Source of the DNA: Candidatus Latescibacterota bacterium
GTDB lineage: Bacteria; Latescibacterota; UBA2968; GCA-2709665
NCBI GenBank assembly: GCA_965248435.1
Contig: OZ252100.1
Location: 1,696,001 to 1,760,000 of the forward strand
DNA: 64,000 bases
Direction of reading: 5' to 3'
The position numbers and the translations under genes were made by a program. Below, piece by piece: positions 10,628 to 61,218 of this stretch. The notes beneath the pieces are model-generated. The model saw only the letters and a list, made by a program, of their open reading frames with translations. It searched no databases and was not told the DNA's origin. Each line of letters opens with the position of its first letter. Within the stretch, counting starts at the first letter, position 1.

Positions 10628-10864
10628 CGCAAATTTCCTCCAGGTGGAAGAATTTTCCCTCCAGCCCCTTGAGGGCCGTTTGCCCGTTGTGTGCTCCCAT
10701 TGGTCAATTTCATTATAACATATTGATAATACTAGATGTATATAATCTAACCCGAGCGGGGGACAACCCGGGGCCACCTCCAGGAAACTGGTATAGAAAT
10801 TGCCAATGTTCAAAGTATAGAAAGCCGCAGAAACCAATCAAGCGACCCCTACAGCTGCCGATGT
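10628..10864 (+). promoter_or_regulatory. Cassette 1: enhancer palindrome, IHF site, sigma54 promoter, sigma28-like promoter
   Basis: GGAAGAATTTTCC 10646-10658; IHF consensus TATCAATATGTTA on minus strand 10716-10728; TGGTATAGAAATTGC 10789-10803; TCAA-N15-GCCGATGT 10838-10864. Confidence 0.75.
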
Positions 10865-10944
10865 TTACTAAAGAAAGGATGATTCCCAACATCCCACCTG
10901 ATAGCATCCCTCCTCTGCATCCATCCCAGCCCATCTGAGTTGAC

Positions 10945-12006
10945 ATGAACGATCTCAAATACATTCTGGTTTCTCCAACCCAAAGCGTCCGCGAGGCCCT
11001 GGAGTGCATGAACCAAAACTCCAAGGGGATCGTACTGGTTGTGGATGAGTCAAACCGACTCTTAGGCACCGTTACGGACGGGAATATCCGCCGAGCGATC
11101 CTGGAAGGGATCCCACTGGAAGCGCAGCTCTCCAATCTCATAGGAACGGATCCGACCTACCCAAATCCGGTCACTGCAAACGAGGGAGCTAGTCCTTCTG
11201 AACTTCTGGCCCTCTTGAGAGAATATCAAATCCATCAGATCCCTCTTCTGGACGGCGATAGACGAGTTGTCGATCTGGTTACGGTAGATGATCTCACCCC
11301 AAAGAACCATCTGCCGGTAACAGCCGTAGTTATGGCCGGAGGCCTAGGTACAAGACTCCGGCCCCTAACCAACGAAACGCCAAAGCCGATGCTCCCCGTC
11401 GGCGGACGGCCGCTAATGGAACATATCATCGAGGGACTGCGTGAGGTAGGCATCACACAGGTCAACGTAACCACCCATTATAAACCAGAAGTTATCACAA
11501 ATCACTTCGGAGATGGAACCGACTTTGGTGTGAGCATAGAATATGTTGCAGAAGAACAGCCACTGGGTACAGCAGGAGCTTTGGGACTGTTGGATGTATC
11601 GGCGGGGCCCAGGCTTGTGATCAATGGTGATATTCTCACTAAAGTCGACTACAGGGCTATGCTCGCGTTTCATCGGGAAAATGAGGCAGACCTCACTATT
11701 GGTGTGCGAGGTCTCGATGTCAAAGTCCCATACGGCGTAGTGGAGACCAACGGTGCCACAGTCCGGAAATTGAAGGAAAAGCCTGTAATTAGCTTCTTTG
11801 TGAATGCAGGAATCTATCTACTTGACCCAGGTGTTTCCGAGTTTATCCCTAATGGCCAGCACATGGACATGACCGACCTGATCCAAAAGCTACTGTTGAA
11901 TGAACGGCAGGTGATCAGCTTCCCCATCAGTGAGTATTGGATCGATATTGGTCAACGTGAAGATTATGATCAGGCGCTTTTAGACCTCGCAACGGAGGGA
12001 ACCTAG
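10945..12006 (+). CDS. CBS-domain nucleotidyltransferase (PtmE-like hexosamine-1-phosphate guanylyltransferase)
   Basis: N-terminal CBS pair (GTVTDGNIRR), MAGGLGTRLRPLT..PKPML, EQPLGTAGAL, WIDIG. Confidence 0.9.
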   Translation: MNDLKYILVSPTQSVREALECMNQNSKGIVLVVDESNRLLGTVTDGNIRRAILEGIPLEAQLSNLIGTDPTYPNPVTANEGASPSELLALLREYQIHQIPLLDGDRRVVDLVTVDDLTPKNHLPVTAVVMAGGLGTRLRPLTNETPKPMLPVGGRPLMEHIIEGLREVGITQVNVTTHYKPEVITNHFGDGTDFGVSIEYVAEEQPLGTAGALGLLDVSAGPRLVINGDILTKVDYRAMLAFHRENEADLTIGVRGLDVKVPYGVVETNGATVRKLKEKPVISFFVNAGIYLLDPGVSEFIPNGQHMDMTDLIQKLLLNERQVISFPISEYWIDIGQREDYDQALLDLATEGT

Positions 12007-12009
12007 CCC

Positions 12010-12978
12010 ATGCGGGTTTTGGTTACCGGTGGGGCGGGATACCTGGGATCGACTCTGACTTCAGTCCTGTTGGCCAATGATCATTTCGTCAAAGTTCTGG
12101 ACACCGTGAATCACGGTGGACAGTCTCTCCTGGGTTTCTGGAGCCATCCCAATTTTGAGTTTGTACTCGGAGACATATGTCAGGGCGACGTTTTAAGAAA
12201 TGTCTTGGCTGATGTTGATACCGTTGTACACCTCGCGGCAATTGTCGGTGACCCGGCCTGTGCTCGCCAGCCTGACCTTTCACGAAAGGTCAACGTTTCC
12301 GGATCGCTGGAGCTGTTGGACTTTTGCCAAAGGCTGGGCATCGATCGATTCGTATTCGCCTCTACGTGCAGCAACTACGGTTGTTTGACCGATCAAACTC
12401 AACCGGTCTCCGAAACCGCAGAGTTGAGGCCTGTGTCACTCTATGCCCAGACAAAAGTGGCAGTCGAGCTGGAAATATTGAAATCTAAAACACCTCATGA
12501 TTTCTGTCCTACGATACTTCGGTTCTCAACCCTATACGGTGTGTCACCCCGTATGCGATTCAATCTGACAGTCAATGAGTTTGCTGCGGATATGTTCACG
12601 AAGAGGCATTTGGTGGTCTACGGAGAGCAGACCTGGAGGCCTTATCTGCACGTCAGGGATGCTGCCAGGGGGATTCTTGCAGTTTTGCAGGCTCCCAAAC
12701 AGAAGGTTTCTGGCGAAGTGATGAACCTGGGCGACAATTCGGAGAACTACAGAAAGGTCGACTTAGTGGAAATGCTACAGAAACGGATACCGGACGGAAC
12801 GGTAGAGTACGTTAAGAAGAATGAGGACCCAAGAAACTATCGCGTCGACTTCAATAAGATCGCTAAGATACTCAACTACAGAATCACCAGAACCATCGAG
12901 GACGGCATAGACGAGGTGATTTCTACTATCCGACAGGGAGTGATTACGGATCTTGGCAACCCTTGTTATCGGAACTGA
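12010..12978 (+). CDS. NAD-dependent nucleotide-sugar epimerase/dehydratase
   Basis: TGGAGYLG, HLAAIVG, YAQTK (YxxxK). Confidence 0.9.
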   Translation: MRVLVTGGAGYLGSTLTSVLLANDHFVKVLDTVNHGGQSLLGFWSHPNFEFVLGDICQGDVLRNVLADVDTVVHLAAIVGDPACARQPDLSRKVNVSGSLELLDFCQRLGIDRFVFASTCSNYGCLTDQTQPVSETAELRPVSLYAQTKVAVELEILKSKTPHDFCPTILRFSTLYGVSPRMRFNLTVNEFAADMFTKRHLVVYGEQTWRPYLHVRDAARGILAVLQAPKQKVSGEVMNLGDNSENYRKVDLVEMLQKRIPDGTVEYVKKNEDPRNYRVDFNKIAKILNYRITRTIEDGIDEVISTIRQGVITDLGNPCYRN

Positions 12979-14188
12979 CAACGAGGTCAGAAAACCAGGC
13001 TCGGGCACCGCAGCGCTGAGCGCACCTGACTTTATCCCTCTCTGCGTCCCAAGAATCTCTGGAAACGCCTGGGTCTACGTGAAGGAGTGCCTCGATACGG
13101 GCTGGGTCTCCTCCGCGGGCAACTTCGTGGATAGATTCGAAGAGGAATTGGGAAAGCAGCTTGGAGTTCAGCATGTGGTTGCGACGATGAATGGGACTTC
13201 TGCCCTCCATCTTTCTTTGCTCGTCGCCGGAGTGCGTCCTGAGGATGAGGTGTTGACCCCCACCCTGACATTTGTCTCTCCTGCGAACGCGATTCGCTAT
13301 TGTGGCGCCTGGCCCGTGTTTATGGATGTCGACCCAAACTGTTGGCAGATGGATCCAGAGAAAGCTGAGCAGTTCCTTGAAAACGAATGCGAATGGCGTG
13401 AGGGCGCACTATGGAACAGAATTACTGGGAGAAGGGTTCGGGCGATACTGCCAGTTCACGTCCTTGGACATCCGTGCGATATGGACCCTATCCTCCAGGT
13501 GGCCTCCAAATACAACCTAGGCGTTATCGAGGACGCAAGCGAGGGTCTTGGCGCCAAGTATGCTGGCCATTCGATCGGTACCCTGGGAGATATCGGCTGC
13601 CTGAGCTTCAACGGAAACAAAGTTATTACCACCGGTGGCGGGGGTGCACTCCTTACAGACAACGAGTCGTGGGCGATGCGCGCACGCCACCTTAGCACTC
13701 AGGCAAAGGAAGATGGCATCGAATACAGCCACGATGAAATCGGCTACAACTATCGGATGGTTAATCTGTTGGCGGCGCTGGGATGTGCCCAGCTCGAACA
13801 CCTCAATGCTTTCATAGAACGCAAAAGAAAAATCGCGACCAGATACCGCCAAGCCCTAAATGATTTGCCAGCAATTTCATTCTTGAAGACGGCGGAATGG
13901 GCAGAGCCGATCGAATGGCTCTTCACAGTCTATCTGAATCCCGGCAGTCGATGCAACAGGCGTAAGTTGATGCAAGAATTAAGGACACGTAACATCGAGA
14001 CCAGGCCCATCTGGACCCCGCTCCATCGCCTTCCAATCTACGCCGAGGCACAAAGTTACAGAATCGAAGTGGCGGACAGACTTCACGCGGGATGTCTGAG
14101 CCTCCCTTGCTCGGCGTCGCTGAGTGAACAGGACCAGCAAAGGGTCATAGACACCTGCCGTCGAATCTTACTTGAGAAAGGACAATAA
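12953..14188 (+). CDS. legC: LegC-family aminotransferase (start codon uncertain)
   Basis: FIPL...ECLDTGWVSS.G, NGTSALH, SFNGNKVITTGGGG, STQAK, HDEIGYNYRM. Confidence 0.8.
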   Translation: MATLVIGTDNEVRKPGSGTAALSAPDFIPLCVPRISGNAWVYVKECLDTGWVSSAGNFVDRFEEELGKQLGVQHVVATMNGTSALHLSLLVAGVRPEDEVLTPTLTFVSPANAIRYCGAWPVFMDVDPNCWQMDPEKAEQFLENECEWREGALWNRITGRRVRAILPVHVLGHPCDMDPILQVASKYNLGVIEDASEGLGAKYAGHSIGTLGDIGCLSFNGNKVITTGGGGALLTDNESWAMRARHLSTQAKEDGIEYSHDEIGYNYRMVNLLAALGCAQLEHLNAFIERKRKIATRYRQALNDLPAISFLKTAEWAEPIEWLFTVYLNPGSRCNRRKLMQELRTRNIETRPIWTPLHRLPIYAEAQSYRIEVADRLHAGCLSLPCSASLSEQDQQRVIDTCRRILLEKGQ

Positions 14189-14191
14189 GAT

Positions 14192-15340
14192 ATGAACTTC
14201 TCATTCTGGCTAAAGACCGACGTGCGCATCGGCCCAGGTTCAGCGGCTTCGGTATTGGACTATATCGAGAAGCGTGCCGTCGAAAAGGTTGCTGTAATCG
14301 TAGATTCTGGCCTGCACGGGAATACTCATCTTCAGCAGCTTGTTGATGGACTTCGGTCCAGTGCAAAACATGTTCAGGTTGTAGAGAATGACGCCTATGA
14401 GCCAACCTATGGCTATCTGGAGGAATTCAAGAAGACATTCGATTCTGGTCTGGATCTTATTGTCGGTATCGGCGGAGGAAGTACGCTCGATCTGACGAAG
14501 GCTGTCTCTGTCTTACTTACCAACCCTGGACCGGCGATTAGCTACCGAGGGTTCGACAAAATCAAAAATCCTGGTGTGCCAGTTATTGCGGTTCCGACGA
14601 CCGCTGGGACAGGAAGTGAAGTGACCCCAAACGCCGTATTCACCGACGCGGACGAGCAGCGAAAGCTGGGGATCAATACTACTTTATACGTGCCTGTAAT
14701 GGCTGTCTTGGATCCCTTCTTAACAGTCTCTTGCCCGAGGGTTGTTACGGTTTCGTCAGGAATAGATGCTCTGGTACACGCGGTTGAAACCTACGTTTCC
14801 AAGGGCGCAACACCAGTTTCTCGAGTACTATCTAAAGAGGCGTTTAGGCTGGTCATGACGAACCTGCCAGCAGTTGTTGACAGAGCCGACGACCTCGATG
14901 CCCGATCGGCAATGCAGGTAGCCGCTCTATATGGGGGAATCGCCCTGATAAACTCCGGTGGAGGAATTACTGGAGCGTTGTCTTACCCCCTAGGCGTTCG
15001 ATTCAAAGTGCCACACGGCCTTGCAGGCGGCATCTTTCTGGCTACTGCATCGCGGCACAACGTCGCGCTGGGCGCACACCAGTATGGCGATCTTTACGAT
15101 ATGCTCGAAGGTGCCCCTGCCCTTTCAGATGCCCAGGAGCGGTCCGAAGCCGTCTGTGCTGCGTTGGATAATCTAGCTGACCGACTGGAGTTGCCCAGGA
15201 GTCTTAAAGTATTCGGTGTAGATGAATCGGATCTGGATAGACTCGCTGAAGAGACCTTTCTGCTGACCGGATCCGTTCAGCAGAATCCCGTGGAGCTTTC
15301 AAAGGAAGATGTTCTAAAGATTATCGAAACTATCGCTTAG
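14192..15340 (+). CDS. Iron-containing alcohol dehydrogenase family (KdnB-like by context)
   Basis: GIGGGSTLD, VPTTAGTGSEVT, DALVHAVE, PHG; adjacent to a KdnA-like gene. Confidence 0.85.
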   Translation: MNFSFWLKTDVRIGPGSAASVLDYIEKRAVEKVAVIVDSGLHGNTHLQQLVDGLRSSAKHVQVVENDAYEPTYGYLEEFKKTFDSGLDLIVGIGGGSTLDLTKAVSVLLTNPGPAISYRGFDKIKNPGVPVIAVPTTAGTGSEVTPNAVFTDADEQRKLGINTTLYVPVMAVLDPFLTVSCPRVVTVSSGIDALVHAVETYVSKGATPVSRVLSKEAFRLVMTNLPAVVDRADDLDARSAMQVAALYGGIALINSGGGITGALSYPLGVRFKVPHGLAGGIFLATASRHNVALGAHQYGDLYDMLEGAPALSDAQERSEAVCAALDNLADRLELPRSLKVFGVDESDLDRLAEETFLLTGSVQQNPVELSKEDVLKIIETIA

Positions 15341-15355
15341 GGAAAGGGAATACAG

Positions 15356-16528
15356 GTGCCGGGATTCGAACTCGTAGGAGAGGAAGAACGCGCAGCAGTC
15401 AATGAGATCTTCGACGAAGGGGGTATCCTCTTCCGCCACGGCTTTGATACTCTCAGGAAAAACGGACGATTTCGCGTCGTGGAATTTGAAGAGGCGTTTG
15501 CTGACTATGTCGGGTCAGGTGATGCCTTAGCGGTATCGTCCGGCACCGCGGCCCTCAAGACAGGCCTGAAGGCTCTTGGGATCCAACCCGGAGACGAGGT
15601 GATTACTCAGGCCTTTACATTTATAGCGACCGTTGAAGCCATCGTAGACGTAGGCGCCATACCAGTTGTCGTAAACGTAGACGATACGCTGAACATGGAC
15701 CCCGACGATCTGGAACGCCATATCACCCCAAAGACACGAGCAATCATCCCCGTGCCCATGCTTGGAGTATCTCCGAGAATGGATCAAATCATGCCCATTG
15801 CGAGAGAAAACAACCTCCTCGTACTTGAAGACAACTGCGAGTCCCTTGGAGCAACCTACGATGGCCGTTTTTTGGGGACTTTCGGAGATATGGGCGCCTT
15901 CAGTTTTGACTTCGGAAAGGTCATCACGACCGGCGAGGGAGGGATGCTGGTCTCCACCAATCCTGAATATATCAAATTGGCGCGAGAGTATCACGACCAC
16001 GGGCACGAAAACAACCCAAAGCTTCCCAGAGGCCGAGATACCCACCGAATTTTCGGCTTCAATTATCGGATAGGAGAACTGCAGGCAGCGGTCGGCTTAG
16101 CGCAGCTAAGAAAGCTCAACTACATAGTCGACCAGAATAGAGCTCATCATAAGACCATGAAACAGGCTCTTAGACAAATAGAGGGGCTTCGTTTTCGGGC
16201 GATTCCACCTAAGAGTGACAGCCTTTGCGACACCCTGATTCTCGAGCTTCCTACGGCCGAACTTGCGAGCGAATTCGTCGCTCGCATGGGGGCAGTTGAG
16301 CTCGGTACAAAGAATCTTCCTGACGCGATCGAATGGCATTTCGCAGGTTACTGGGATCACATATTTAACCTATTTGATATGAACAAGCAGCAACTGTGGG
16401 ACTCCCTCTATCCGAGCTACGCTCGTCTGTCCCGATGTGTCGCACTACCGATAATGGTGAAGTACACTTCCGACCGTATCGACTTCATGATCGACAACAT
16501 ATCACGTATAGCCGACGATCTGCTCTGA
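15356..16528 (+). CDS. DegT-family aminotransferase, KdnA (8-amino-Kdo transaminase)-like
   Basis: MPGFEL.G.EE N-terminus, SFDFGKVITTGEGG, YHDHGH, WHF motif resemble KdnA. Confidence 0.8.
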   Translation: MPGFELVGEEERAAVNEIFDEGGILFRHGFDTLRKNGRFRVVEFEEAFADYVGSGDALAVSSGTAALKTGLKALGIQPGDEVITQAFTFIATVEAIVDVGAIPVVVNVDDTLNMDPDDLERHITPKTRAIIPVPMLGVSPRMDQIMPIARENNLLVLEDNCESLGATYDGRFLGTFGDMGAFSFDFGKVITTGEGGMLVSTNPEYIKLAREYHDHGHENNPKLPRGRDTHRIFGFNYRIGELQAAVGLAQLRKLNYIVDQNRAHHKTMKQALRQIEGLRFRAIPPKSDSLCDTLILELPTAELASEFVARMGAVELGTKNLPDAIEWHFAGYWDHIFNLFDMNKQQLWDSLYPSYARLSRCVALPIMVKYTSDRIDFMIDNISRIADDLL

Positions 16529-16538
16529 TTTCCCTACT

Positions 16539-18428
16539 ATGAAAAATCTGGTTATCTGCGAGTTTCCCTGGCAGGTTCAACTGATAAAGCCCAGGATATC
16601 AGAAGACGACATTGTTATCTCGTTCAATGCGGAAACAAATTACGAATTGGAGAGAAACGGCATCAATTTCTCCGACGCGCGGGACTATTATGACCACTGC
16701 CACATCTGGAGCCAGTATCCAGACTTCACGCATCGGACGGCTCGTATATGCAACCGACTGGATCAAATCTTCTGGAAGGTTGACCCGGAGTTAGGGGGAA
16801 AGCAACTCAAGCTATCTGACCTCCTGTTCTACCAACTCAAGATTGCCATTGGCCAAGCCTTTTACAAGATCCACGTCTCGCGCGAGATCTTGAGAAGACA
16901 CGCACCAACGGGCAGAGTGACGATCGCATCTGCGGCCGAGACCCCAATCCTGACCAATTTCCTGTTGTTTGACGGGGAGTCCAGCATCCTCAGCTGGATA
17001 TTTGGAGCCCTACAAAGTGAAATGGGATATCAGATCCAGTTCCTTGAGACCCCAGAAACTCGACCTAATAGCCATCAAGGAACAAGATCTCGTCTGACAA
17101 AAGGGATTGGTAAGGCCATACGCAAACTGCAGCGCCTTAAAGCTGCGCGTTTCCCGTTTCCAAAAACTCCCCCTCCCGATAAGATCAACGTCCGTCTTCT
17201 TTCGGTAAACTGCCCGGAGCTGGACACGCTTAAAGGGCCACTCCTTGCCGACAAGATTTGCGTGGAAACTTACCAGGGTGAGATGTTCCATTTGACCACC
17301 AGAACCTACCCGTGCTCCACCGATATCATCGAAGCCATCGAGCAAGACGCCACCATTAAAGATCAACTTACCTTTGAAGGGCTTAATGCCTCTCAGCTCA
17401 TATTCCCAATTCTATCCAAGTTCGTCAAGACTCTGGACCGCTTTCTGGAACACTACAAAGAAATGGAACAACTCCTGGATGCAACCAAGCCGGACTGTGT
17501 TTTCGTTCAGAGCTTGGCCCCGTTCCATCTGTCCAATATCCTTCTCGCTCAAATTTGTGACCGGCGAAACATACCTCTTGTCTGCTGGATGCACGGAGGT
17601 TACGGCGCCTATCACTCCTTGACGGGTTATGACGTGACTGACTTCAGATTGGGCATCAATCATTTTGTCTACGGAAAGGCCGTAAGCGACATTTTGGCTT
17701 CTGAGAAGTGCGTATTAAACCAACTCGGCTTCAACGGACACAATCTCTACGTTAGCGGGGCGCCAGCAATCGAGCAGAAATATCGTACTTATGTGAAGCC
17801 GAAGAACAGTAGGAAGAGAGTATTACTCCCGGTAGGGAATCTCTCGACCTACAATCAATTCCACTTTGGATACAACCGACGGAACGCGGAATACTGCAGT
17901 TGGGAGTATCACAGGGTCATTATAGAGCTTTTTGTAAGATATCAAGATAGATATGAATTCGTAATCAAGGACTATCCAAATCCAAAAGTTAACATGAAGG
18001 ACACATGGTCATCTCTGCTGAAGGATCTCGGCGGCCGGAAAATAAGGCTCGTTACTGACGAAGAGCGATTCGAGGACCTTCTTGTGAAATCCGACTTGTG
18101 TGTCTTTACCTGGGTGAGTACTACCTTTATCGAGAGCCTACTGACAGACGCCGATATCTTCCTATTGGACGACAGTGATATTACGGACGAAGCTAGAGCG
18201 CTATTCGAGGCCTACATAGAATTCAGCGACAACATTCCACAATTCGTTGCAAAACTTGACCGATACCTGGATGTTGGAAGGTTCTACTCACAGGACAAGG
18301 GGCTGCTGCGTGACTATTTTGTTGATTACAGTCATAAGGATGACCGACCTGAGACGGTAGCCAGAATGATAGATCAGATCGTCGATAGGCCTGAGGCAGG
18401 AACTGTCCCAGGCAACCTCACGGGTTGA
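16539..18428 (+). CDS. Large hypothetical surface-glycan protein, putative GT-B transferase
   Basis: 629 aa; WMHGG, IKDYP and C-terminal DLCVFTWVSTTFIESL. Confidence 0.5.
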   Translation: MKNLVICEFPWQVQLIKPRISEDDIVISFNAETNYELERNGINFSDARDYYDHCHIWSQYPDFTHRTARICNRLDQIFWKVDPELGGKQLKLSDLLFYQLKIAIGQAFYKIHVSREILRRHAPTGRVTIASAAETPILTNFLLFDGESSILSWIFGALQSEMGYQIQFLETPETRPNSHQGTRSRLTKGIGKAIRKLQRLKAARFPFPKTPPPDKINVRLLSVNCPELDTLKGPLLADKICVETYQGEMFHLTTRTYPCSTDIIEAIEQDATIKDQLTFEGLNASQLIFPILSKFVKTLDRFLEHYKEMEQLLDATKPDCVFVQSLAPFHLSNILLAQICDRRNIPLVCWMHGGYGAYHSLTGYDVTDFRLGINHFVYGKAVSDILASEKCVLNQLGFNGHNLYVSGAPAIEQKYRTYVKPKNSRKRVLLPVGNLSTYNQFHFGYNRRNAEYCSWEYHRVIIELFVRYQDRYEFVIKDYPNPKVNMKDTWSSLLKDLGGRKIRLVTDEERFEDLLVKSDLCVFTWVSTTFIESLLTDADIFLLDDSDITDEARALFEAYIEFSDNIPQFVAKLDRYLDVGRFYSQDKGLLRDYFVDYSHKDDRPETVARMIDQIVDRPEAGTVPGNLTG

Positions 18429-18432
18429 CGCG

Positions 18433-19206: not shown

Positions 19207-19230
19207 ATCCCCAACAATCGAAAGCGACGA

Positions 19231-51581: not shown

Positions 51582-51710
51582 ATGAAAGTGGAATATGCTT
51601 GCCTCAAGGAACAGTTCGCTGATTCCAACGAGATCAGTGGAAAGAATAATCGGCCGATGAAGGTGAGATATACTAGCATCAAGGAACAGTTCGCTGATTC
51701 GGATGAAATC
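51582..51710 (+). repeat. Diverged tandem duplication (75-bp period) of a DegT gene start
   Basis: MKVEYACLKEQFADSNEI (51582) vs MKVRYTSIKEQFADSDEI (51657); identical core TCAAGGAACAGTTCGCTGATTC. Confidence 0.9.
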
Positions 51711-52757: not shown

Positions 52758-52766
52758 TAGGGCCAC

Positions 52767-53414: not shown

Positions 53415-54435
53415 AGAGACGATCCAGAATCGGTTCAATAGCAAATTGATCCGGTTGGAGCAGATAAAGAGCGGAAACAACCGGGTGCTGAAAGCCTGCT
53501 GCGAGAATCATCGGTACTTTCTCGTCAAGGTATATCCTTTGACAGAAGATGATCAGCGGGATCGTCTGGGTGTCGAATTCCAGGCGTTGACATTCCTCCG
53601 AAAGAATGGGATGGTCGCTGTTCCAAGACCTCTCCACGCGGAAAGGAAAGAGGGTTTTGCTGTCTACGAGTTTATCGAGGGAACACCGATTCGACAAAAC
53701 GGTGTGGGCAGAGAGGATATTGAAATTGTAACCGACTTCTTGAAGGAACTCTCAGAGCTTTCGTTACTTCCTAACAGTGCCTCTTTGCCTGCCGCTTCGG
53801 AGGCTTGTGGGTCTTACAGTTCTTACGCGAATTCGCTCGAGCGGCGATTGAAGAGACTGCAAGCCATTTCCAGCGAGACCTCCCTGCACGAAGAAGCACA
53901 GCTGTTCTTAGAAACAGAGTTTATCCCTGTTTTCGAGGACACCAGGGCGCATTACTACGAAGCGCTGTCTGCAGTCAGCCTGGATCCTTCCGAGGGATTC
54001 CGTCGGGACCAGATGACGCTCAGTCCTTCCGACTTCGGGTTTCACAACGCCATCAAGAAGGCCGCGGGCGGTATCGCCTTTGTCGATTTCGAGTACTTCG
54101 GGTGGGACGATCCGGCGAAGATGATCGGAGATTTCCTTCACCACGCAGCCTTTTCATTGTCTGAAGATCTGAAGCAGTTGTTTATGAAGAATATGCTGAG
54201 CGTGTTTGGCCGAGACGGATCATTGCCCGACCGGGTGCGGCTGGTTCATCCCCTCATCGGTCTGAAGTGGTGTATGATCCTACTCAATGAGTTCCTGCCC
54301 GGTCCCCTTGAAAGGAGAAAGGCAGGGAATGGTTCTCTGACTATAGAGGACGCTTTGAATGGGCAATTGATGAAGGCGAGAAGAAAGCTCTCTGAGGTTG
54401 TAGAACAACGTAATTTGACTTACGAGGTTGCCTGA
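53398..54435 (+). CDS. Aminoglycoside-phosphotransferase/choline-kinase-fold kinase (start uncertain)
   Basis: SGNNRV, LVK, PSDFGFHN, VDFEYFGWDDP. Confidence 0.82.
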   Translation: MSERIRETIQNRFNSKLIRLEQIKSGNNRVLKACCENHRYFLVKVYPLTEDDQRDRLGVEFQALTFLRKNGMVAVPRPLHAERKEGFAVYEFIEGTPIRQNGVGREDIEIVTDFLKELSELSLLPNSASLPAASEACGSYSSYANSLERRLKRLQAISSETSLHEEAQLFLETEFIPVFEDTRAHYYEALSAVSLDPSEGFRRDQMTLSPSDFGFHNAIKKAAGGIAFVDFEYFGWDDPAKMIGDFLHHAAFSLSEDLKQLFMKNMLSVFGRDGSLPDRVRLVHPLIGLKWCMILLNEFLPGPLERRKAGNGSLTIEDALNGQLMKARRKLSEVVEQRNLTYEVA

Positions 54436-55257
54436 ATGGAGAACGACCGTCTGGATACCCGATCTCTGGAGTTGAGAAGAGACATCGTCTCTATGGTCGA
54501 ATATGGCGGCAGGGGTCATCTGGCCTCGGCATTTTCACTCGTAGAGATTCTGAGGGTGCTCTACGACGACATCTTGAAGGTGAGGCCGGGACAACCCGGT
54601 TGGTCGCACCGTGATCGCATGATCCTGAGCAAGGGGCACGGCTGCCTTGCGCTGTATGCGGTTCTTGCCGATAGAGGTTTTTTCGACAAAGAAGAATTCA
54701 AACGTGTCTGCAAATCTGACGGCATTCTCGGAGGTCACCCGGAATTCCCGAAGGTGCCCGGTGTGGAGGCGTCCACAGGCGCCCTTGGACACGGGATCTC
54801 GATCGGTATCGGCATGGCACTCTATGCCAAACACGAGGGGATGGGTCATAGGGTCTTCGTAGTGATCGGTGACGGGGAATGCAATGAAGGGTCCATATGG
54901 GAGGGAGCCCTTTCGGCAAGCAAACACGCGCTGGATAACCTTAGCGTCGTCATCGACTGTAACAAGATGCAGTCTTACGCCAGTACCTCAGAGGTCCTGA
55001 ACCTCGAGCCATTTACTGACAAATGGAAGAGCTTCGGGTTCGAGGTAAGGGATGTCGATGGTCACGATGTAAAGAGCATGGGCGAAATCTTTCGAGAGTT
55101 GCCTTTCAACCCGGGAAAACCGAGTGCCGTGGTTTGCCATACGGTTAAAGGCAAGGGTGTTCCCTATGTAGAGAACAATCTGTCCTGGCACCACAAAAGC
55201 CGAATGAAAGAAGAGGAAGTGTCATCGCTTTACGCGGACTTAAGGAGTGAAGCTTGA
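54436..55257 (+). CDS. Transketolase-like protein, N-terminal (TPP-binding) subunit
   Basis: LSKGH, STGALGHG, GDGECNEG, TVKGKG, WHH. Confidence 0.95.
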   Translation: MENDRLDTRSLELRRDIVSMVEYGGRGHLASAFSLVEILRVLYDDILKVRPGQPGWSHRDRMILSKGHGCLALYAVLADRGFFDKEEFKRVCKSDGILGGHPEFPKVPGVEASTGALGHGISIGIGMALYAKHEGMGHRVFVVIGDGECNEGSIWEGALSASKHALDNLSVVIDCNKMQSYASTSEVLNLEPFTDKWKSFGFEVRDVDGHDVKSMGEIFRELPFNPGKPSAVVCHTVKGKGVPYVENNLSWHHKSRMKEEEVSSLYADLRSEA

Positions 55258-56198
55258 GAGCGACAGCGCTTGAGTGTGTCACGGAACAGGCTCGGATTGA
55301 CAACAGGATATTCTTCATCGGATCGGACCTTGGTGAAGGCACTCTTGATGAGTTCAAACAGGATATGCCGGACCGCTTCCTGATGGAAGGGATATCCGAG
55401 GCGAACATCATTGGGCTGGCGGCGGGTCTGGCACTGGAAGGTAAGATTCCATACGTAAACACGATTGCGACCTTTCTGACGCGGCGGTGCTTCGAACAGA
55501 TCGCCATTGATCTATGTCTGCATAATCTGAAGGTTCGACTGATCGGCAACGGGGGAGGGCTTGTGTATGCTCCACTGGGACCTACCCATATGGCGATCGA
55601 GGATCTGGCGATCATGCGTTCGCTGCCGAACATGACCGTCGTCGCCCCTGCGGATGCCGATGAAATGCGTCGATTGATGCCACTCACGGTGGATTATCCC
55701 GGCCCCATCTATATCCGGCTGGCAAAAGGCTACGAGCCCATCGTGACTACAAATGATGTTCCCTTCCAGATCGGAAGGGCGATTCCGATGCGTGAGGGGT
55801 CCGATGTGCTGATCGTGACAACAGGCATCACGCTGAAAATGGCTCTGTCAGCCTCAGAGCATCTTAGCCAGGCGGGCATCGAGGCCGCTGTCCTCCACGT
55901 ACCAACAATCAAGCCTCTGGACATCGATGCGATTTTGAATATGGCTGCTTCGGTCAGAGCGATCGTGACAGTGGAGGAACATACTATTACGGGAGGCCTG
56001 GGCAGTGCGGTGGCGGAAGTGATCTCAGAGGCAGATTTTGAAACACCTAAATTGTTTCGTCGGATCGGCATACCAGACACCTTTCCGGATCAATATGGAT
56101 CTCAGAAGAGCCTTATGTCTCGCTACAACATTACTCCAGAGGAGATTGCTTCCGTAGCCGAAAGAACTCTGGAAAAAGCGAAGAGATCCCTCTTTTAG
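55254..56198 (+). CDS. Transketolase-like protein, C-terminal subunit
   Basis: GISEAN, GPTH, YIRL, TIKPLD, VEEH..GGLGS. Confidence 0.95.
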   Translation: MRATALECVTEQARIDNRIFFIGSDLGEGTLDEFKQDMPDRFLMEGISEANIIGLAAGLALEGKIPYVNTIATFLTRRCFEQIAIDLCLHNLKVRLIGNGGGLVYAPLGPTHMAIEDLAIMRSLPNMTVVAPADADEMRRLMPLTVDYPGPIYIRLAKGYEPIVTTNDVPFQIGRAIPMREGSDVLIVTTGITLKMALSASEHLSQAGIEAAVLHVPTIKPLDIDAILNMAASVRAIVTVEEHTITGGLGSAVAEVISEADFETPKLFRRIGIPDTFPDQYGSQKSLMSRYNITPEEIASVAERTLEKAKRSLF

Positions 56199-56210
56199 AA
56201 AGGATTGCTC

Positions 56211-56873
56211 GTGGGAAAGCTCCTCAATCTTTTCACCCCGCTTCACAGACGGACCAAACGCGACTACTTGGGGCGGATGATGGATGACAAAGTGCATTGT
56301 ATGATGAAGGCAAAGGAGTATAAACTCGATTATTGGGACGGCGACCGGAGGTACGGATACGGCGGGTACGTCTACGATGGCCGCTGGAAGGGGGTTGCCG
56401 AGGAGTTTATCCAGATCTACGACCTGAGGAACGATTCCAGGATTCTGGACGTTGGGTGCGGTAAAGGTCATCTGCTTTACGAACTGAAAAAGCTGTTGCC
56501 GAACGCATACATTCAGGGCTTGGATATCTCCAGACACGGAATCGGAGATGCGCCGGAAGCGATAAAGGATTCCCTCTTCATCCATCGGGCTGAGGAGGCC
56601 CTCCCCTATGAGGACGACGAGTATGACCTCGTTATCTCCCTAGGATGCCTGCACAATTTGCGCCTCTTCCAACTTGAAACGGCAGTAGCGGAAATAGAGC
56701 GCGTAGGAAAAACGAAATATGTCATGGTGGAAAGCTACCGGAATGAACAGGAACTGTTCAACCTTCAGTGCTGGGCGTTGACCGCGGAAACATTCCTCGA
56801 CAAAGAGGAGTGGGTTTGGATTTACGACCACTTCGACTACACCGGGGACTACGAATTCATATACTTTGAATGA
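56211..56873 (+). CDS. Class I SAM methyltransferase
   Basis: YWDGDRRYGYGGY, LDVGCGKG, LHNL. Confidence 0.88.
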   Translation: MGKLLNLFTPLHRRTKRDYLGRMMDDKVHCMMKAKEYKLDYWDGDRRYGYGGYVYDGRWKGVAEEFIQIYDLRNDSRILDVGCGKGHLLYELKKLLPNAYIQGLDISRHGIGDAPEAIKDSLFIHRAEEALPYEDDEYDLVISLGCLHNLRLFQLETAVAEIERVGKTKYVMVESYRNEQELFNLQCWALTAETFLDKEEWVWIYDHFDYTGDYEFIYFE

Positions 56874-56886
56874 ATCGGAGTAGATC

Positions 56887-57936
56887 TTGATTTCACGAGC
56901 TGTCAAAGCTGCAATCCTGGTCGAGTTGAATCAGCCGCTCGTCGTGGCCGATATCGAACTTCCAAAAGAGTTATGCTTCGGCCAAGTGCTGGTAAAGGTC
57001 CATTATAGTGGCATCTGTGGAGCCCAGATCAACGAGATCGAGGGAGCCAAGGGCCCGGACAAGTTTCTACCCCACCTGCTCGGTCACGAGGGTTCGGCGA
57101 CCGTGCTGGATGTAGGACCAGGCGTGAAGACGGTCAAGAAGGACGATCACGTCGTAATGCACTGGCGGCCGAGCAGCGGGCTGCAGTCGGAGACGCCGTC
57201 CTATCGCTGGAACGGCCGCGAGTTGAACGCGGGGTGGGTGACTACCTTCAATAACTATGCCGTTGTGTCAGAAAATCGCCTCACCCCCATCCCGAAGGAT
57301 TTCGACCTGAAACTCGCGCCCCTGTTCGGCTGCGCGGTGACAACGGCGATGGGTGTGATCAATAACGACGCCCGCGTCAAGATCGGGCAGTCCGTGGTGA
57401 TCTTTGGAGTCGGTGGCGTGGGACTAAATATCGCGCAGGCCGCCAGCATGGTATCAGCACATCCGATTGTTGCGGTGGATCTGTCTGATTCAAAGCTCGA
57501 GATGGCCAGGAAATTTGGGGTCACCGACGTGTTAAACGCCAATACGGCGTCCAACCTGGCAACACAAATCCTTGAGATTGTCGGGGAGCGTGGTGCGGAT
57601 GTGGTTGTGGACACGACAGGAAATTCCCGTGTGATCGAACAAGCTTACGAGCTGACCCATCCCGACGGAAAGACGATTCTTGTTGGTGTGCCCTCGAAGG
57701 GGGACAATATCTCCATCTATTCCCTTCCGCTGCACTTCAAAAAAGTCCTCACCGGCTCCCACGGGGGCAGCTCCGAACCCCACCTTGAGATCCCGCGCTA
57801 CATCCGTCTCTGCCGAACCGGCAGGATGCAACTGGACGGCCTCATCACCCACGAATTCAGCCTGGATCAGATCAACGAAGCCATTGAGGTGGTCAGCAAC
57901 CGCGAGGCCGGTCGAGTTCTTGTTGTTATGGATTGA
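56887..57936 (+). CDS. Zinc-binding (MDR) dehydrogenase
   Basis: GICG, GHEG, GCAVTT, GVGGVG. Confidence 0.92.
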   Translation: MISRAVKAAILVELNQPLVVADIELPKELCFGQVLVKVHYSGICGAQINEIEGAKGPDKFLPHLLGHEGSATVLDVGPGVKTVKKDDHVVMHWRPSSGLQSETPSYRWNGRELNAGWVTTFNNYAVVSENRLTPIPKDFDLKLAPLFGCAVTTAMGVINNDARVKIGQSVVIFGVGGVGLNIAQAASMVSAHPIVAVDLSDSKLEMARKFGVTDVLNANTASNLATQILEIVGERGADVVVDTTGNSRVIEQAYELTHPDGKTILVGVPSKGDNISIYSLPLHFKKVLTGSHGGSSEPHLEIPRYIRLCRTGRMQLDGLITHEFSLDQINEAIEVVSNREAGRVLVVMD

Positions 57937-57975
57937 GAGCTACTGGATCTTACGGCGATATGAAAGGTGATTTAG

Positions 57976-59085
57976 ATGGAGGTTCGTTATCTCGACCTGA
58001 GTGTGCGTGATCCTCTTCTCAAGAAGGACCTGTTGGGCGCGGTCGAAAATATTTTGAGACACGGTCAAGTCTTGCTGGGCCCTGAGGTGGAAGAACTTGA
58101 ATCGAAGTTGGCAGATTACTGTGACCGAAGATTCGCCGTAGGTGTCAGTTCCGGGACAGACGCCCTCTATCTGGCGCTTCGGGCCCTAGGCATCGGCCCC
58201 GGTGACGAGGTCATCACCACTCCCCTGTCGTGGATTGCGACGGTCAACGCCATCGTAGTGGCAGGTGCGACGCCGGTTTTCGTCGACATCGGCACCGATT
58301 TGAACATCAACGCCGACCTGATATCCAGCGCGGTCACGCCCCGTACCAAGGCCATCGTTCCGGTTCACTTTAGCGGCAAGATGTGTGATATGGACCGAAT
58401 CTGCACGGTCGCTGACGAACACGACCTTAGCATCGTTGAGGACGCAGCTCAGGCATTCGGGGCCCATTTAGGACCCGGTCGACGGGCCGGCTCCTTTGGC
58501 CGGGTTGCTTGCTTTAGTATGAACCCAATGAAGGTCCTCCACTCCTATGGCGAGGCGGGGGCGGTGCTCACCAACGACAAAACGCTCAGGGATACGATCG
58601 TTACTCTCCGTTATGCAGGAACCGTTAACCGTGAGGATTGTCACCATCCCTGCCTCAACTTCCGCATCCAGACAATCCAGGCGGCGCTTCTCTTGGTCGA
58701 GTTCAATCGGATTGATCGCATCGTCCAACGTCGCCGAGAAATCGCTGGGACATACGGTGAAGGCCTACGGAGTGTGGTCGAGTGTCCCCAGGAAGACCCT
58801 GGCTCCAGCCATGTGTACTATACATACACAGTCCAGGCAGAAAATCGGGACCAACTCAAACACTTCCTGGCAGGCAAAGGCATTGAGACCAAGATTCACC
58901 ACGCCCTGCTGGCGCCGAATCATTCCGCCTACAAAGGCAAGTTCAGGGTAAACATCCCAACTGCCGAGCGCTTACACAAAAGGATCCTCTCCATCCCTAA
59001 TCACGAGAAGATGACGAACGCCGAAGTCGAATATGTCATTTCGTCTATCCAGAAGTTCTATGGAGCCACGTTAGCAACGCGATAG
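57976..59085 (+). CDS. DegT-family aminotransferase
   Basis: SSGTDAL, EDAAQAFG, SMNPMKVL. Confidence 0.95.
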   Translation: MEVRYLDLSVRDPLLKKDLLGAVENILRHGQVLLGPEVEELESKLADYCDRRFAVGVSSGTDALYLALRALGIGPGDEVITTPLSWIATVNAIVVAGATPVFVDIGTDLNINADLISSAVTPRTKAIVPVHFSGKMCDMDRICTVADEHDLSIVEDAAQAFGAHLGPGRRAGSFGRVACFSMNPMKVLHSYGEAGAVLTNDKTLRDTIVTLRYAGTVNREDCHHPCLNFRIQTIQAALLLVEFNRIDRIVQRRREIAGTYGEGLRSVVECPQEDPGSSHVYYTYTVQAENRDQLKHFLAGKGIETKIHHALLAPNHSAYKGKFRVNIPTAERLHKRILSIPNHEKMTNAEVEYVISSIQKFYGATLATR

Positions 59086-59150
59086 CCGCGAACGATAATG
59101 TTTTGCTCCGTTCCGTCGCGCCTAATAAAGCGAGGCGAAGAGAAAAGTCG

Positions 59151-60353
59151 ATGAAATCATGCCACCTCTGTAGGACCGAGCCAGTTAGGGAACTGTTTGA
59201 TTTCGGAATGCAGCCAATTTCCAACCGTTATCTAATGAATCCTGACGATGACGAGTACACCTATCCTATGGCAGTCAGCCAGTGTTCCGAATGTGGGCTT
59301 ATCCAAATCAGCAACCCGGTGCCTCCAGCAGAGCTCTTACCTCCCTATGATTGGATCACATACAATGAGCCTGAAGAACACCTCGATCACATGGTGGATA
59401 TGCTATGCAACCTGCCCGGCCTAACAAACAAATCCCAAATTTGCGGTTTTACCTTCAAGGACGACTCATCCCTGACACGTTTGAAAAAGCGTGGATTCAA
59501 GCGCACCTGGAGAATAGATCCAAAGGATGACCTGGGCATTGATGACACGCGAGCAGGTATTGAAACTGTTCAACATCATTTCACAGATAGAGCAGCGAGT
59601 CGAATTGTTCAAAGGCGTGGCAGACCGGATGTCGTTATTGCCAGGCACATTCTGGAACACGCACAGGATCTGCGTGGATTTATGAAGGCGCTCAAACAGC
59701 TGGTCAGTCCTAAAGGGTATATCATTGTTGAGGTTCCTGATTCTACACAAGCCTTAAAGAATTTCGACTATGCGACCTTGTGGGAAGAACATTGCCTCTA
59801 CTTTACTCCTGAAACCTTTCAAAACTCCTTCGCCTTTGGAGGTTTCTCCCTCGTTGGTTTGGAGAGTTACTCATATCCTTTCGAGAACTCTCTGGTCGGT
59901 ATTATGCGGCTCCAAGGGGATCTAGCCTCTTCTTTCCCTGCTGAGCAGATTCTGGAAGAGGAGAGACTCAGAGCACAGACCTACTTTGATCGTGTTGAAA
60001 AGAGTCGCAAAACTTTCAACAAATATCTCTCAGAGTTTCGCCATCGCGAAGGTAAGATTGCGCTGTTCGGTGCGGGGCACCTTGGTTGCGCCTTTGTCAA
60101 TCTAATGGGACTAAAAAGTCAGATTGAATTCTTCGTAGACGACAACCCGAACAAGCGAGGACTCTTTATGCCTGGTTCCCACCTTCCCATCTATGGGTCC
60201 TCAGCCCTAGTTAAGAAAAACGTCAAACTCTGTCTGTTAGGTCTCAATCCCTTGAGTGAAGAGAGAGTAATTCTGAACAATTCTGATTTCACGAAAAGCG
60301 GAGGAATCTTCGCGTCTATCTTTCCTGGCAGCAAGCATTCAATGCGGCCGTGA
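59151..60353 (+). CDS. NDP-sugar C-methyltransferase-like protein
   Basis: CHLC...CSECGLIQ Zn domain, RHILEH, EEH, C-terminal FGAG...VDDNPNKRGLFMPGSHLPI; SAM motif I degenerate. Confidence 0.78.
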   Translation: MKSCHLCRTEPVRELFDFGMQPISNRYLMNPDDDEYTYPMAVSQCSECGLIQISNPVPPAELLPPYDWITYNEPEEHLDHMVDMLCNLPGLTNKSQICGFTFKDDSSLTRLKKRGFKRTWRIDPKDDLGIDDTRAGIETVQHHFTDRAASRIVQRRGRPDVVIARHILEHAQDLRGFMKALKQLVSPKGYIIVEVPDSTQALKNFDYATLWEEHCLYFTPETFQNSFAFGGFSLVGLESYSYPFENSLVGIMRLQGDLASSFPAEQILEEERLRAQTYFDRVEKSRKTFNKYLSEFRHREGKIALFGAGHLGCAFVNLMGLKSQIEFFVDDNPNKRGLFMPGSHLPIYGSSALVKKNVKLCLLGLNPLSEERVILNNSDFTKSGGIFASIFPGSKHSMRP

Positions 60354-60461
60354 AGAATCTGACAGGCGGCGTTAATCAAGAGAAATAGAGGATTATTTTA
60401 AAACACAGAAATTCGAATACGTCACTCTATCCATTCGGAATTTAAACAACCCGATGAACCA

Positions 60462-60986
60462 ATGAACTATTCAATCGCTAGCGACGAGGTGCTCTACACC
60501 ACGGAGCCTGTGACCGCGGTGAATCACGCCGACATACAACGCCTCATAGGCCTCGCGGCAAAGAATCCTAGGCAACGGATCCGTCTTTGCGCTCATCCAG
60601 ATACCGAGGACCGCCTTCACGAAATGCTCATCGTACACGCCAAGGGCACCTATGTGAGACCTCACAAGCATCCTGGTAAGAGTGAGTCATTCCACATGAT
60701 TGGTGGCCAACTCCAGGTCGTCTTGTTCGAGGACGACGGACGAGTCAAAGACGTAATCAGCATGGATGAGGTGCGCTCGGGCGACACTTTCTATTATCGC
60801 CTTTCCGAGGGCTGGTTTCACACTGTTATTCCTACCAGTACGGTCGTCGTCTTTCACGAGACTACGAACGGACCCTTCAAGCGAGAAGAGACCCTTTTTG
60901 CGCCCTGGGCTCCGGAGGAGGACAATTATGAGGCCCAAGAGCATTATCTGAAAGAATTGTCTTTAACGACGAGGTCCCGCCCTTGA
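60462..60986 (+). CDS. WbuC-family cupin-fold metalloprotein
   Basis: NPRQRIR..H, YVRPHKH..KSES, FHT, ETTNGPF, APWAP. Confidence 0.88.
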   Translation: MNYSIASDEVLYTTEPVTAVNHADIQRLIGLAAKNPRQRIRLCAHPDTEDRLHEMLIVHAKGTYVRPHKHPGKSESFHMIGGQLQVVLFEDDGRVKDVISMDEVRSGDTFYYRLSEGWFHTVIPTSTVVVFHETTNGPFKREETLFAPWAPEEDNYEAQEHYLKELSLTTRSRP

Positions 60987-60987
60987 A

Positions 60988-61218
60988 CGGAAAAATTTTC
61001 TTTCCGTCCCGAGGGCCGGGAAAGAAGGCCTGGTCCTTACCTCACAAAGTCTCCAAGCTTTTCCATCGTAAGATACATAAAATAAAGTAGTTATATATAA
61101 ATCGACGTTCGAATTCCCTCTACCAGAGAAGCGGGCTACAGGACGGGCATAGGAATTGCTTACACTCCCAATCGTCTTTGTCCAAACCGCTAAGCGTCTC
61201 TAAAGCCATTGCCGATAG
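60988..61218 (+). promoter_or_regulatory. Cassette 6: enhancer palindrome, IHF-like site, sigma54 promoter, sigma28-like promoter
   Basis: GGAAAAATTTTCT 60989-61001; AATAAAGTAGTTA 61081-61093; GGGCATAGGAATTGCT 61145-61160; TAAG-N16-GCCGATAG 61191-61218. Confidence 0.7.

Follow-up and report, generated by a model that had tools for sequence, protein, structure and literature searches.

Tandem sigma54- and sigma28-type promoter motifs, probably drawn from the flagellar transcription hierarchy, precede the gene blocks of a glycan island in a Candidatus Latescibacterota genome

In a 64,000-nt stretch of a Candidatus Latescibacterota genome (assembly GCA_965248435.1, contig OZ252100.1, positions 1,696,001 to 1,760,000; here "the window," G000:C1:1696001-1760000), we found that blocks of glycan genes are preceded by composite regions in which a sigma54-type motif is usually followed by a sigma28-type motif. 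These composite promoter regions are probably drawn from the flagellar transcription hierarchy. Their tandem arrangement is rare elsewhere in the 5.67-Mb genome (56.6% GC, two contigs), their component motifs stand at flagellar genes, and they are kept in other genera amid DNA that cannot be aligned. Because the island shares these control signals with flagellar genes, production of its surface sugars is probably coordinated with flagellum assembly. Nearly all window genes lie on the + strand, with functions in sugar-nucleotide biosynthesis, sugar modification, and glycosyl transfer. We call each promoter region a cassette and the genes behind it a module (Table 1). An earlier note, made from the window sequence alone, had described an island of over 60 kb with six cassettes; the island instead runs from about C1:1671 kb to 1775 kb (∼100 kb) and holds at least eight (c0 to c7).

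The sigma54 consensus places GG and GC exactly 10 nt apart in a TGGCAC-N5-TTGCW-like context. By direct reading and pattern search, six sites of the form GG(C/T)AT-N5-TTGC were located on the + strand of the window, all fitting this consensus; a seventh match to GGYAT-N5-TTGC lies inside a gene (52268). Five of the six are followed on the same strand, 14 to 48 nt past the GG, by TMAR-N15/16-GCCGAT. These sites fit the TAAA-N15-GCCGATAA-like sigma28 consensus, closely in c2, c3, c4, and c6 and with TCAA in c1, and the consensus was re-derived from the flagellin promoters of G000 itself. Other sigma28-pattern matches in the window comprise two genic ones on the + strand (4241 and 51634) and one on the − strand. 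The earlier note had reported the same six and five sites, as well as the lack of a sigma28 site in the cassette at 48.7 kb; we recovered all of them where it had placed them, with its sigma54 coordinates one base low. In 10 of 13 tabulated tandem cassettes, the sigma54 TTGC and the sigma28 TAA are 30 to 36 nt apart (exceptions: c2, 0; c3, 22; G008_c, 26), a distance that predicts two transcription starts ∼50 nt apart.

Both motifs are enriched over shuffled sequence, and the tandem pair is almost confined to the island; the earlier note had proposed tests of this kind. The window holds 7 matches to the sigma54 pattern, against 0.78 ± 0.95 in 100 dinucleotide shuffles, and 8 to the sigma28 pattern, against 1.24 ± 1.21; no shuffle reached either count. 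Genome-wide, 184 GGYAY-N5-TTGC and 178 TMAR-N15/16-GCCGAT matches form just 6 same-strand pairs within 120 nt, 5 of them in the window. When a position weight matrix was built from four flagellin promoters only, the island sigma28 sites ranked 9, 47, 49, 71, 233, and 668 among 11.3 million positions. Matches of sigma70 type numbered 16, 6, and 10 in the window, against 17.0, 16.1, and 12.7 in shuffles, with just two weak ones inside gaps. A cassette had been claimed for every long gap; one is present in six of the seven + strand gaps no shorter than 240 nt, and the exception (39749-40143) holds an epimerase remnant. This NAD-dependent epimerase fragment (39750-40034) begins with an N-terminal GxxGxxG-like motif and then breaks off, filling the sole long gap without a cassette. 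The sixth genome-wide pair (C1:5540897-5541862, locus L024), the only G000 tandem outside the island region, has an AT-rich block and a weak palindrome and lies 150 to 430 nt upstream of a 94-aa open reading frame (ORF) and a HicB-family antitoxin-like gene.

Upstream of the promoters, we observed a 13-bp palindrome, GGAAA-N3-TTTCC (at most one mismatch), 105 to 157 bp from the −24 GG in five of six window cassettes, several with an extra half-site. A candidate for the enhancer postulated for every cassette is present in these five and only degenerate in the cassette at 24.3 kb. The palindrome is not known to match a described site of an enhancer-binding protein (EBP); no search was made for it. 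An AT-rich block with a recurrent TAACAT core lies between the palindrome position and the promoter in c1, c2, c5, and c6. The block in c1 (TAACATATTGATA) fits the IHF consensus, and we take it to be a candidate DNA-bending site.

All-against-all comparison (blastn-short) identified c3 and c4 as the sole homologous pair, ∼80% identical through promoter and leader from the −24 box to about +130; the remaining pairs have nothing in common beyond the motifs. With alignment limited to c3/c4, we rejected the idea that the cassettes are a repeat family or copies of a mobile element, and the "six copies" of one cassette in the earlier note are better described as separate promoter regions with short motifs in common. 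Since only c3 and c4 align, the short boxes have been kept independently, which argues for function. The c3/c4 pair itself (34576-34770 versus 42401-42600) is a recent duplication; the genes driven are not the same, one encoding a methyltransferase and the other a methyltransferase-GT2 fusion.

The sigma factors and flagellar genes that such promoters call for are present in the genome, a point that the earlier note had proposed to check: one rpoN (a single Sigma54_DBD match, 199.5 bits, C1:264316-264786), one fliA above the TIGR02479 equivalog cut-off (281.8 bits), and eight Flagellin_N matches. Four flagellins (C1:1555454, 1650552, 231900, and 5500103) are preceded by long leaders and the sigma28 motif (C)TAAAG/TCAAG-N15/16-GCCGATA, and a fifth, at 229427, by the near variant ACCGATA. 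The sigma54 motif likewise occurs at flagellar genes. The flagellin at C1:1557323 is preceded by TGGCATATTCGTTGCT and, 129 bp further upstream, by GGAAAAATTTTCA, a form of the palindrome with one mismatch, and the flgF-flgG-flgI rod/P-ring operon has both a sigma54 motif and the GGAAA-N3-TTTCC palindrome upstream. Across the genome, the palindrome (at most one mismatch, 286 sites) lies 70 to 200 nt from GGYAY-N5-TYGC (436 sites) 16 times, against ∼3 estimated by chance. Eleven of these pairs fall in mapped non-coding space, and one more lies upstream of the sigma54 flagellin; these counts are approximate because "non-coding" was taken from a crude longest-ORF map that wrongly marks some gaps, such as the flagellin sigma54 promoter region, as coding. 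The resulting twelve include that flagellin, flgF-flgG-flgI, five window cassettes, and c0. The remaining four stand before the genes of a 1760-aa cohesin/dockerin protein, an EPSP-synthase-family enzyme, and a TPR protein and before a small-ORF locus with a sigma28 site.

To follow the cassettes into relatives, we used a relaxed tandem pattern; the strict one (GCCGAT, TMAR) understated their spread because relatives often use GTCGAT and TAAT. Among 31 genomes, the relaxed pattern matched four times in G000, three times in G004 (within 43 kb), three times in G008 (within 9 kb), and once in G005, while a reversed-pattern control matched once; single matches in G001 and G014 were not cassette-like. 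A phylum sample of 151 genomes gave 25 matches in 15 genomes, against 5 for the control, and the genomes with several matches (G143, 4; G074, 3; G088, 2; G120, 2) all belong to the sister family. Overall, eight other genomes of this order have similar tandem cassettes in front of glycan genes. Glycan genes follow in 15 of 15 relatives' cassettes examined, with a small membrane-protein ORF coming first in one (G008, locus L051). The genes encode HldE-like, hexapeptide acetyltransferase, PMT_2, Wzx-like flippase, formyltransferase, GDP-mannose dehydratase, acetyltransferase-aminotransferase fusion, and epimerase proteins.

The first gene of module 5 (HldE-like) allowed comparison at orthologous positions. 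Its orthologues in G004 and G005 have 68 to 70% nucleotide identity, and another is present in G143 of the sister family. The DNA upstream of the G004 and G005 orthologues cannot be aligned with c5, and the order of elements is kept: palindrome, AT block, GGCATA-N4-TTGC, a sigma28 site with GTCGATAG, and a CCATCCC leader. In G143 the upstream DNA is also unalignable, the layout is comparable, and the leader motif reads CATCCCA. The sigma28 box at these orthologues is GTCGATA or GCCGATA. Palindrome and sigma54 motif also precede flgF-like genes in G004, G005, and G008, which represent two other genera of the family (three of four plausible matches examined). For the first gene of module 1, no close orthologue was found among the relatives (best, 40% identity, in G005), and no footprint was obtained; a wider contig scan with this gene returned only distant metagenome-assembled genomes, the best from Latescibacterota at 66%. 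Gene content differs even within the same genus. As read from these sequences, the promoter grammar is conserved across genera and the gene content is not.

Behind the promoters lie C-rich, G-poor leaders that fold no better than shuffles (z, −0.26 to +0.54) and contain a shared motif. (G)CCATCCC occurs eight times in six of seven G000 leaders, against 0.19 expected, with the conserved form GCCATCCC. It was found in six of six glycan cassettes of family-f1 relatives; in family f2, the exact motif is present in two of eight and a CATCCC-type motif in four of eight. The motif is always on the transcribed strand, its distance to the start codon varies, and one copy lies between flgF and flgG. Copies beyond the window lie at C1:1674800, 1760208, 1765067, and 1575220 and in loci L125-L131, L137, and L138, the genomes concerned being G000, G004, G005, G008, G088, and G120; the copy at C1:1760208 is in an island gap without a promoter cassette. 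No Rfam family reached its gathering score in the window, and a riboswitch or known leader RNA in the c4 region was rejected, the sole match at E ≤ 1 being a spurious long noncoding RNA model (E = 0.85). Long co-oriented glycan operons and long leaders with a short conserved motif are also features of the JUMPStart/ops-RfaH system and the Bacteroides UpxY operons. In contrast to JUMPStart/ops-RfaH, the island has no JUMPStart or Rfam match, its motif is GCCATCCC rather than ops, and its promoters are of the sigma54/sigma28 type. The genome has one NusG-family gene and no RfaH-type NusG paralogue, so an ops/RfaH-like reading lacks its protein.

From the motifs we infer the binding proteins, the firing of both promoters, their timing, and the glycan target, as follows. 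Each cassette would consist, in order, of an EBP site (GGAAA-N3-TTTCC, often with an extra half-site), usually an AT-rich and probably bent segment, a sigma54 −24/−12 promoter, a FliA/sigma28 promoter ∼30 to 36 nt further on in most cassettes, and a C-rich, unstructured leader, usually with GCCATCCC. At the rod/hook stage, an active flagellar EBP would loop onto sigma54-RNA polymerase and fire the upstream promoter. At the filament stage, released FliA would let the downstream promoter take over, with a transcript shortened by ∼50 nt. The blocks of sugar-biosynthesis and transferase genes would each thereby be expressed in mid to late flagellar assembly, yielding nonulosonic acids; 6-deoxy, amino, methylated, and sulfated sugars; and lipid-linked transfer steps. 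The glycans of the island probably decorate flagellin and/or another surface structure of motile cells only.

The enzymes of the island are compatible with such products. The window encodes NeuB, NeuC, a PglD-like acetyltransferase, six DegT aminotransferases, RmlA-D-like enzymes, cytidylyl- and nucleotidyl-transferases, many methyltransferases, one sulfotransferase, GT2 and GT4 transferases, two PMT_2 GT-C enzymes, and one MBOAT. Of these, NeuB (TIGR03569, 450.9 bits), NeuC, the PglD-like acetyltransferase, DegT aminotransferases, and cytidylyltransferases belong to nonulosonic-acid synthesis. On the 5′ side of the window lie a PseB-like dehydratase, a DegT, a cytidylyltransferase (CTP_transf_3), a second NeuB, and further genes; on the 3′ side, an asparagine synthase-like gene, two carbamoyltransferases, a third PMT_2, LPG_synthase_TM, a GT2, and three GT4 genes. 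Two nonulosonic-acid pathways fit flagellin modification, as do the TPR-glycosyltransferases inside the flagellar cluster; these giant proteins are encoded between flagellins and a flgL-like gene, outside the island.

Several observations weigh against a flagellar origin of the promoters or a flagellar target of the glycans. The anatomy of the cassettes is uneven, with c2 lacking a good palindrome, c5 lacking a sigma28 site, and c7 having its boxes reversed and no palindrome. The earlier note had proposed to look for the same cassette at flagellar genes; flagellins and flgF do carry sigma28 or sigma54/palindrome motifs, but each flagellar gene has one promoter type or the other, never the tandem. 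The palindrome-sigma54 set also takes in genes that are not flagellar (cohesin/dockerin, EPSP-synthase family, TPR). Besides FliA, the genome encodes 12 group-3-like sigma factors of ∼290 aa, one of which could read the GCCGATA box in its place. None of its ∼21 EBP genes (Sigma54_activat) adjoins the island or the flagellar clusters, and a FleQ-type regulator was considered and rejected: the single weak FleQ-domain match, at 744 kb, sits amid histidine kinase, Omp85, and BipA genes, which are not flagellar. Among relatives, the sole match in same-genus G001 precedes no glycan gene but that of a CARDB-domain protein, and the two largest genera have single matches at most (g3, 1 in 15 genomes; g6, 1 in 20). 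A purely flagellin-directed island is further opposed by three PMT_2 GT-C enzymes, the MBOAT, an ABC exporter, and LPG_synthase_TM, which point to a lipid-linked, periplasm-facing glycan; the GT-C enzymes, MBOAT, exporters, and flippases would suit a lipid-linked glycan of the envelope. A profile search found no Maf-type flagellin glycosyltransferase (PF01973) in the genome. Nor is the island physically linked to flagellin genes: the nearest flagellin (with fliL, C1:1650552) lies ∼24 kb before c0 and 46 kb before the window, and the main flagellar cluster is at 1550-1576 kb.

Many of these points would be accommodated by a broader surface-remodelling or developmental regulon, in which an EBP recognizing GGAAA-N3-TTTCC, possibly with a FliA-like paralogue, drives a lipid-linked envelope glycan (of lipopolysaccharide, capsule, or S-layer type) and a few flagellar genes are mere co-members. 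We regard this explanation as rather unlikely, yet it accounts for the cohesin/dockerin surface protein, TPR protein, and EPSP-synthase-family enzyme in the palindrome-sigma54 set, for a sigma28-type site before a 1710-aa dockerin protein, and for the 12 extra group-3-like sigma factors and missing Maf. The PMT_2 GT-C enzymes, MBOAT, and ABC exporter, the Wzx-like flippases of relatives, and families of Leptospira O-antigen type (TIGR04326, TIGR04331, TIGR04417) also suit it. However, the clearest members outside the island are flagellar, namely flgF-flgG-flgI and a flagellin for sigma54 (flgF being kept in three relatives) and four to five flagellins for sigma28. The only sigma factor above the FliA equivalog cut-off is also the natural reader of TAAA-N15-GCCGATAA, and the nonulosonic-acid pathways and flagellar-cluster TPR-glycosyltransferases fit flagellin modification.

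A quite improbable alternative is that the island is read essentially as a single very long transcript, or as a few of them, with the cassettes serving as internal boosters or re-initiation points, or as places where sigma54 closed complexes act as roadblocks or insulators. The genes are all co-oriented, and none of the six gaps contains an intrinsic-terminator-like site on the + strand, so read-through with internal booster promoters is as possible as module-by-module switching. RNA that is C rich, G poor, and unstructured has the composition expected of Rho loading sites, and the leaders are of this kind, so termination may be conditional. However, this alternative concerns what the promoters bring about rather than what they are, and it is compatible with flagellar-type cassettes; a single antiterminated operon would also lack its usual parts (an RfaH-type NusG paralogue and a JUMPStart or Rfam match). 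That the matches are chance or functionless relics is very improbable and effectively refuted by the controls: the motifs are short and degenerate, and c1, c2, c5, and c7 each lack an element or have a weakened one, but 0 of 100 shuffles reached the counts, 5 of 6 genome-wide pairs fall in one 64-kb window, reversed-pattern controls are near zero, and the motifs persist at orthologous sites in other genera, where the surrounding DNA cannot be aligned.

The principle behind flagellar-type cassettes in a glycan island is already known, both as RpoN/FliA control of flagellar glycosylation and as dual-tier promoters, and the present finding is an extension of it. In Helicobacter pylori and Campylobacter jejuni, flagellin glycosylation enzymes are under RpoN with the sigma54 "middle" flagellar genes, and sigma28 drives late flagellin (PMC3930126); the H. 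pylori flaB-jhp0106 operon is described as dependent on an RpoN site (PMC5368276). The island resembles these systems in predicted sigma54 timing and in nonulosonic-acid pathways. It differs in having at least eight composite promoters over ∼100 kb, mostly with a tandem sigma28 site, where they have single promoters or co-transcription with flagellin, and in its DNA palindromes at promoters, its lack of Maf, and its position apart from flagellins. In both of those species, FlgR needs no DNA enhancer.

In Escherichia coli and Salmonella, fliDST, flgKL, flgMN, and the fliL operon receive dual class 2 and class 3 input, proposed to secure continued supply in filament growth and repair (PMC4183435). 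There, too, two successive flagellar tiers act on one operon and the second is FliA. The upstream tier, however, is FlhDC with sigma70, the targets are structural or chaperone genes, and there is no repetition over a large island, whereas here it would be an EBP with sigma54 acting on sugar biosynthesis. By analogy, the cassette may be the sigma54 counterpart of the enteric dual operons. In Pseudomonas and Vibrio (FleQ/FleR and FlrA/FlrC), EBPs activate sigma54 basal-body and hook promoters before FliA acts on late genes, an order that is standard among polar flagellates (PMC5550985, PMC4481668). This EBP/sigma54-then-FliA hierarchy is similar, but no convincing FleQ-type regulator was found here. 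A full-text literature search, with subscription-only papers outside its reach, found no account of tandem sigma54/sigma28 promoters within a glycan island and nothing relevant on flagella and sigma54 in Latescibacteria; its only "tandem promoter" matches concerned Chlamydia sigma66/sigma28 (PMC10597470). The regulatory design is real and conserved, and it appears undescribed in the searchable literature.

If the promoters work as read, the flagellar hierarchy would schedule sugar biosynthesis here on a larger scale than in any case so far, with ∼90 genes in at least eight transcription units tied to two flagellum-assembly checkpoints. A variable, horizontally shuffled island could stay co-regulated by using the same short promoter grammar for each module. 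For a lineage that lacks genetics, the cassettes would also offer testable elements, namely a candidate EBP operator (GGAAA-N3-TTTCC), sigma54 and sigma28 consensus sequences specific to this lineage, and a leader motif. More tentatively, it is possible that the whole order keeps hypervariable surface-glycan islands under the flagellar assembly clock through one modular cis unit, its sigma28 promoter set at a nearly constant distance of 30 to 36 nt and the whole rebuilt before each newly acquired sugar module, with strand-specific GCCATCCC as a new post-initiation signal replacing ops/RfaH. In that case, the leader element might act, for example, in Rho loading, in processivity, or through an RNA-binding regulator.

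Table 1. Cassette elements, modules, and other features of the island (window positions unless a contig coordinate is given)
Feature	Position	Strand	Remarks
c0	21 kb upstream of window, before ABC exporter		Palindrome and sigma54, then TAAT-N15-GCCGATTA
c1 putative upstream activator site (UAS) GGAAGAATTTTCC	10646-10658	+	144 bp upstream of −24 GG; additional half-site AAATTTCC just upstream
c1 AT-rich block with TAACATATTGATA	10708-10750	+	Candidate DNA-bending site
c1 sigma54 −24/−12 GGTATAGAAATTGC	10790-10803	+	
c1 sigma28-like TCAA-N15-GCCGAT	10838-10862	+	Weakest −35 of five; rank 49 genome-wide with flagellin matrix
c1 leader CCATCCC	10921-10927	+	Also ACATCCC at 10889
c2 sigma54 GGTATAGATATTGC	24422-24435	+	No convincing UAS; best palindrome match has 2 mismatches
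c2 sigma28 TAAG-N15-GCCGAT(AA)	24436-24460	+	Abuts sigma54 −12 box; rank 9 genome-wide with flagellin matrix
c2 leader GCCATCCC	24490-24497	+	
c3 UAS GGAAAAAATTTCC	34465-34477	+	Exact palindrome, 111 bp upstream of GG
c3 sigma54 (T)GGCATAAATCTTGC(A)	34576-34589	+	
c3 sigma28 TAAA-N15-GCCGAT(AT)	34612-34636	+	
c3 leader GCCATCCC	34696-34703	+	
c4 UAS GGAAAAATCTTCC	42288-42300	+	113 bp upstream of GG; additional half-site AATTTTCC upstream
c4 sigma54 (T)GGCATAAATCTTGC(A)	42401-42414	+	
c4 sigma28 TAAA-N15-GCCGAT(AT)	42445-42469	+	
c4 leader GCCATCCC	42530-42537	+	
c5 UAS GGAAACTTTTTCC	48632-48644	+	Exact palindrome, 112 bp upstream of GG
c5 sigma54 GGTATACGAATTGC	48744-48757	+	No sigma28 site after it; orthologous cassettes of G004, G005, and G143 have one
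c5 leader, two CCATCCC (48797, 48813)	48797-48819	+	
c6 UAS GGAAAAATTTTCT	60989-61001	+	1 mismatch, 157 bp upstream of GG; within inverted repeat ACGGAAA-N7-TTTCCGT
c6 sigma54 GGCATAGGAATTGC	61146-61159	+	15-nt core identical to that of c0
c6 sigma28 TAAG-N16-GCCGAT(AG)	61191-61216	+	Closely resembles sigma28 box of G004 cassette in L125
c7	C1:1764929/1764989		Two boxes in reversed order, no palindrome
Module 1	10945-24240	+	CBS-nucleotidyltransferase, epimerases, 2 DegT, Fe-ADH, LIC12162-like protein, cytidylyltransferase, sugar O-methyltransferase, oxidoreductases
Module 2	24488-34369	+	Epimerase, TIGR04326-like protein, methyltransferase, GT2, PMT_2 (GT-C), MBOAT, one unknown
Module 3	34880-42100	+	Methyltransferase, RmlA/B/C/D-like, GT2, epimerase remnant (39750-40034), TylF methyltransferase, sulfotransferase
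Module 4	42659-48565	+	Methyltransferase-GT2 fusion, methyltransferase, PMT_2 (GT-C), cytidylyltransferase, GT4
Module 5	49031-60986	+	HldE-like kinase/nucleotidyltransferase, epimerase, DegT, kinase, split transketolase, methyltransferases, Zn-ADH, DegT, C-methyltransferase, WbuC cupin
Module 6	61388-64000, extends past window	+	Methyltransferases, GT2; then, outside, asparagine synthase-like gene and cassette c7
IS30-like element	7728-8798	+	Transposase 7793-8776; 37-nt imperfect terminal inverted repeats 7728-7764 and 8762-8798; part of the island, not of a cassette

In addition to the cassettes, we observed that the IS30-like element splits neuC (hydrolysing UDP-GlcNAc 2-epimerase, window 7582-9821) into its N-terminal 55 codons (7582-7749) and a remainder from 8784. 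Another copy of the transposase, identical in its Pfam scores, sits in inverted orientation at C1:1688728-1689711 (L098:8728-9711), and the two copies flank ∼14 kb of the island. In the flagellar cluster at C1:1550-1576 kb (L095, L096), the two giant TPR-glycosyltransferases (1011 and 1134 aa) are accompanied by a GNAT protein, an FGE-sulfatase-type enzyme, a 1006-aa FliD, and a 768-aa protein with a flagellin/FlgL-like N terminus fused to a methyltransferase domain.

Elsewhere in the genome, two FliA-like paralogue genes (C1:1325725-1327809 and C1:4460247-4462458) are each preceded by a good sigma54 promoter match (1326713 and 4461160) and adjoined by an EBP gene, which suggests sigma54-to-group-3-sigma cascades unrelated to the island. 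Two giant dockerin proteins were also noted: one of 1760 aa (C1:1808489-1813771; also with cohesin, FlgD_ig, and Por_Secre_tail domains), after a palindrome-sigma54 promoter, and one of 1710 aa (C1:4229681-4234813), after a strong sigma28-type site. The regulon of the island may accordingly include large surface proteins. At locus L022 (C1:2390183-2390720), palindrome, AT block, and sigma54 motif followed by a sigma28 site precede a 46-aa membrane peptide and then a 59-aa ORF; at L051 (G008:C34), a like arrangement precedes an 87-aa membrane protein and then an epimerase. The small ORFs at both loci may encode unannotated small flagellar or glycan-related proteins.

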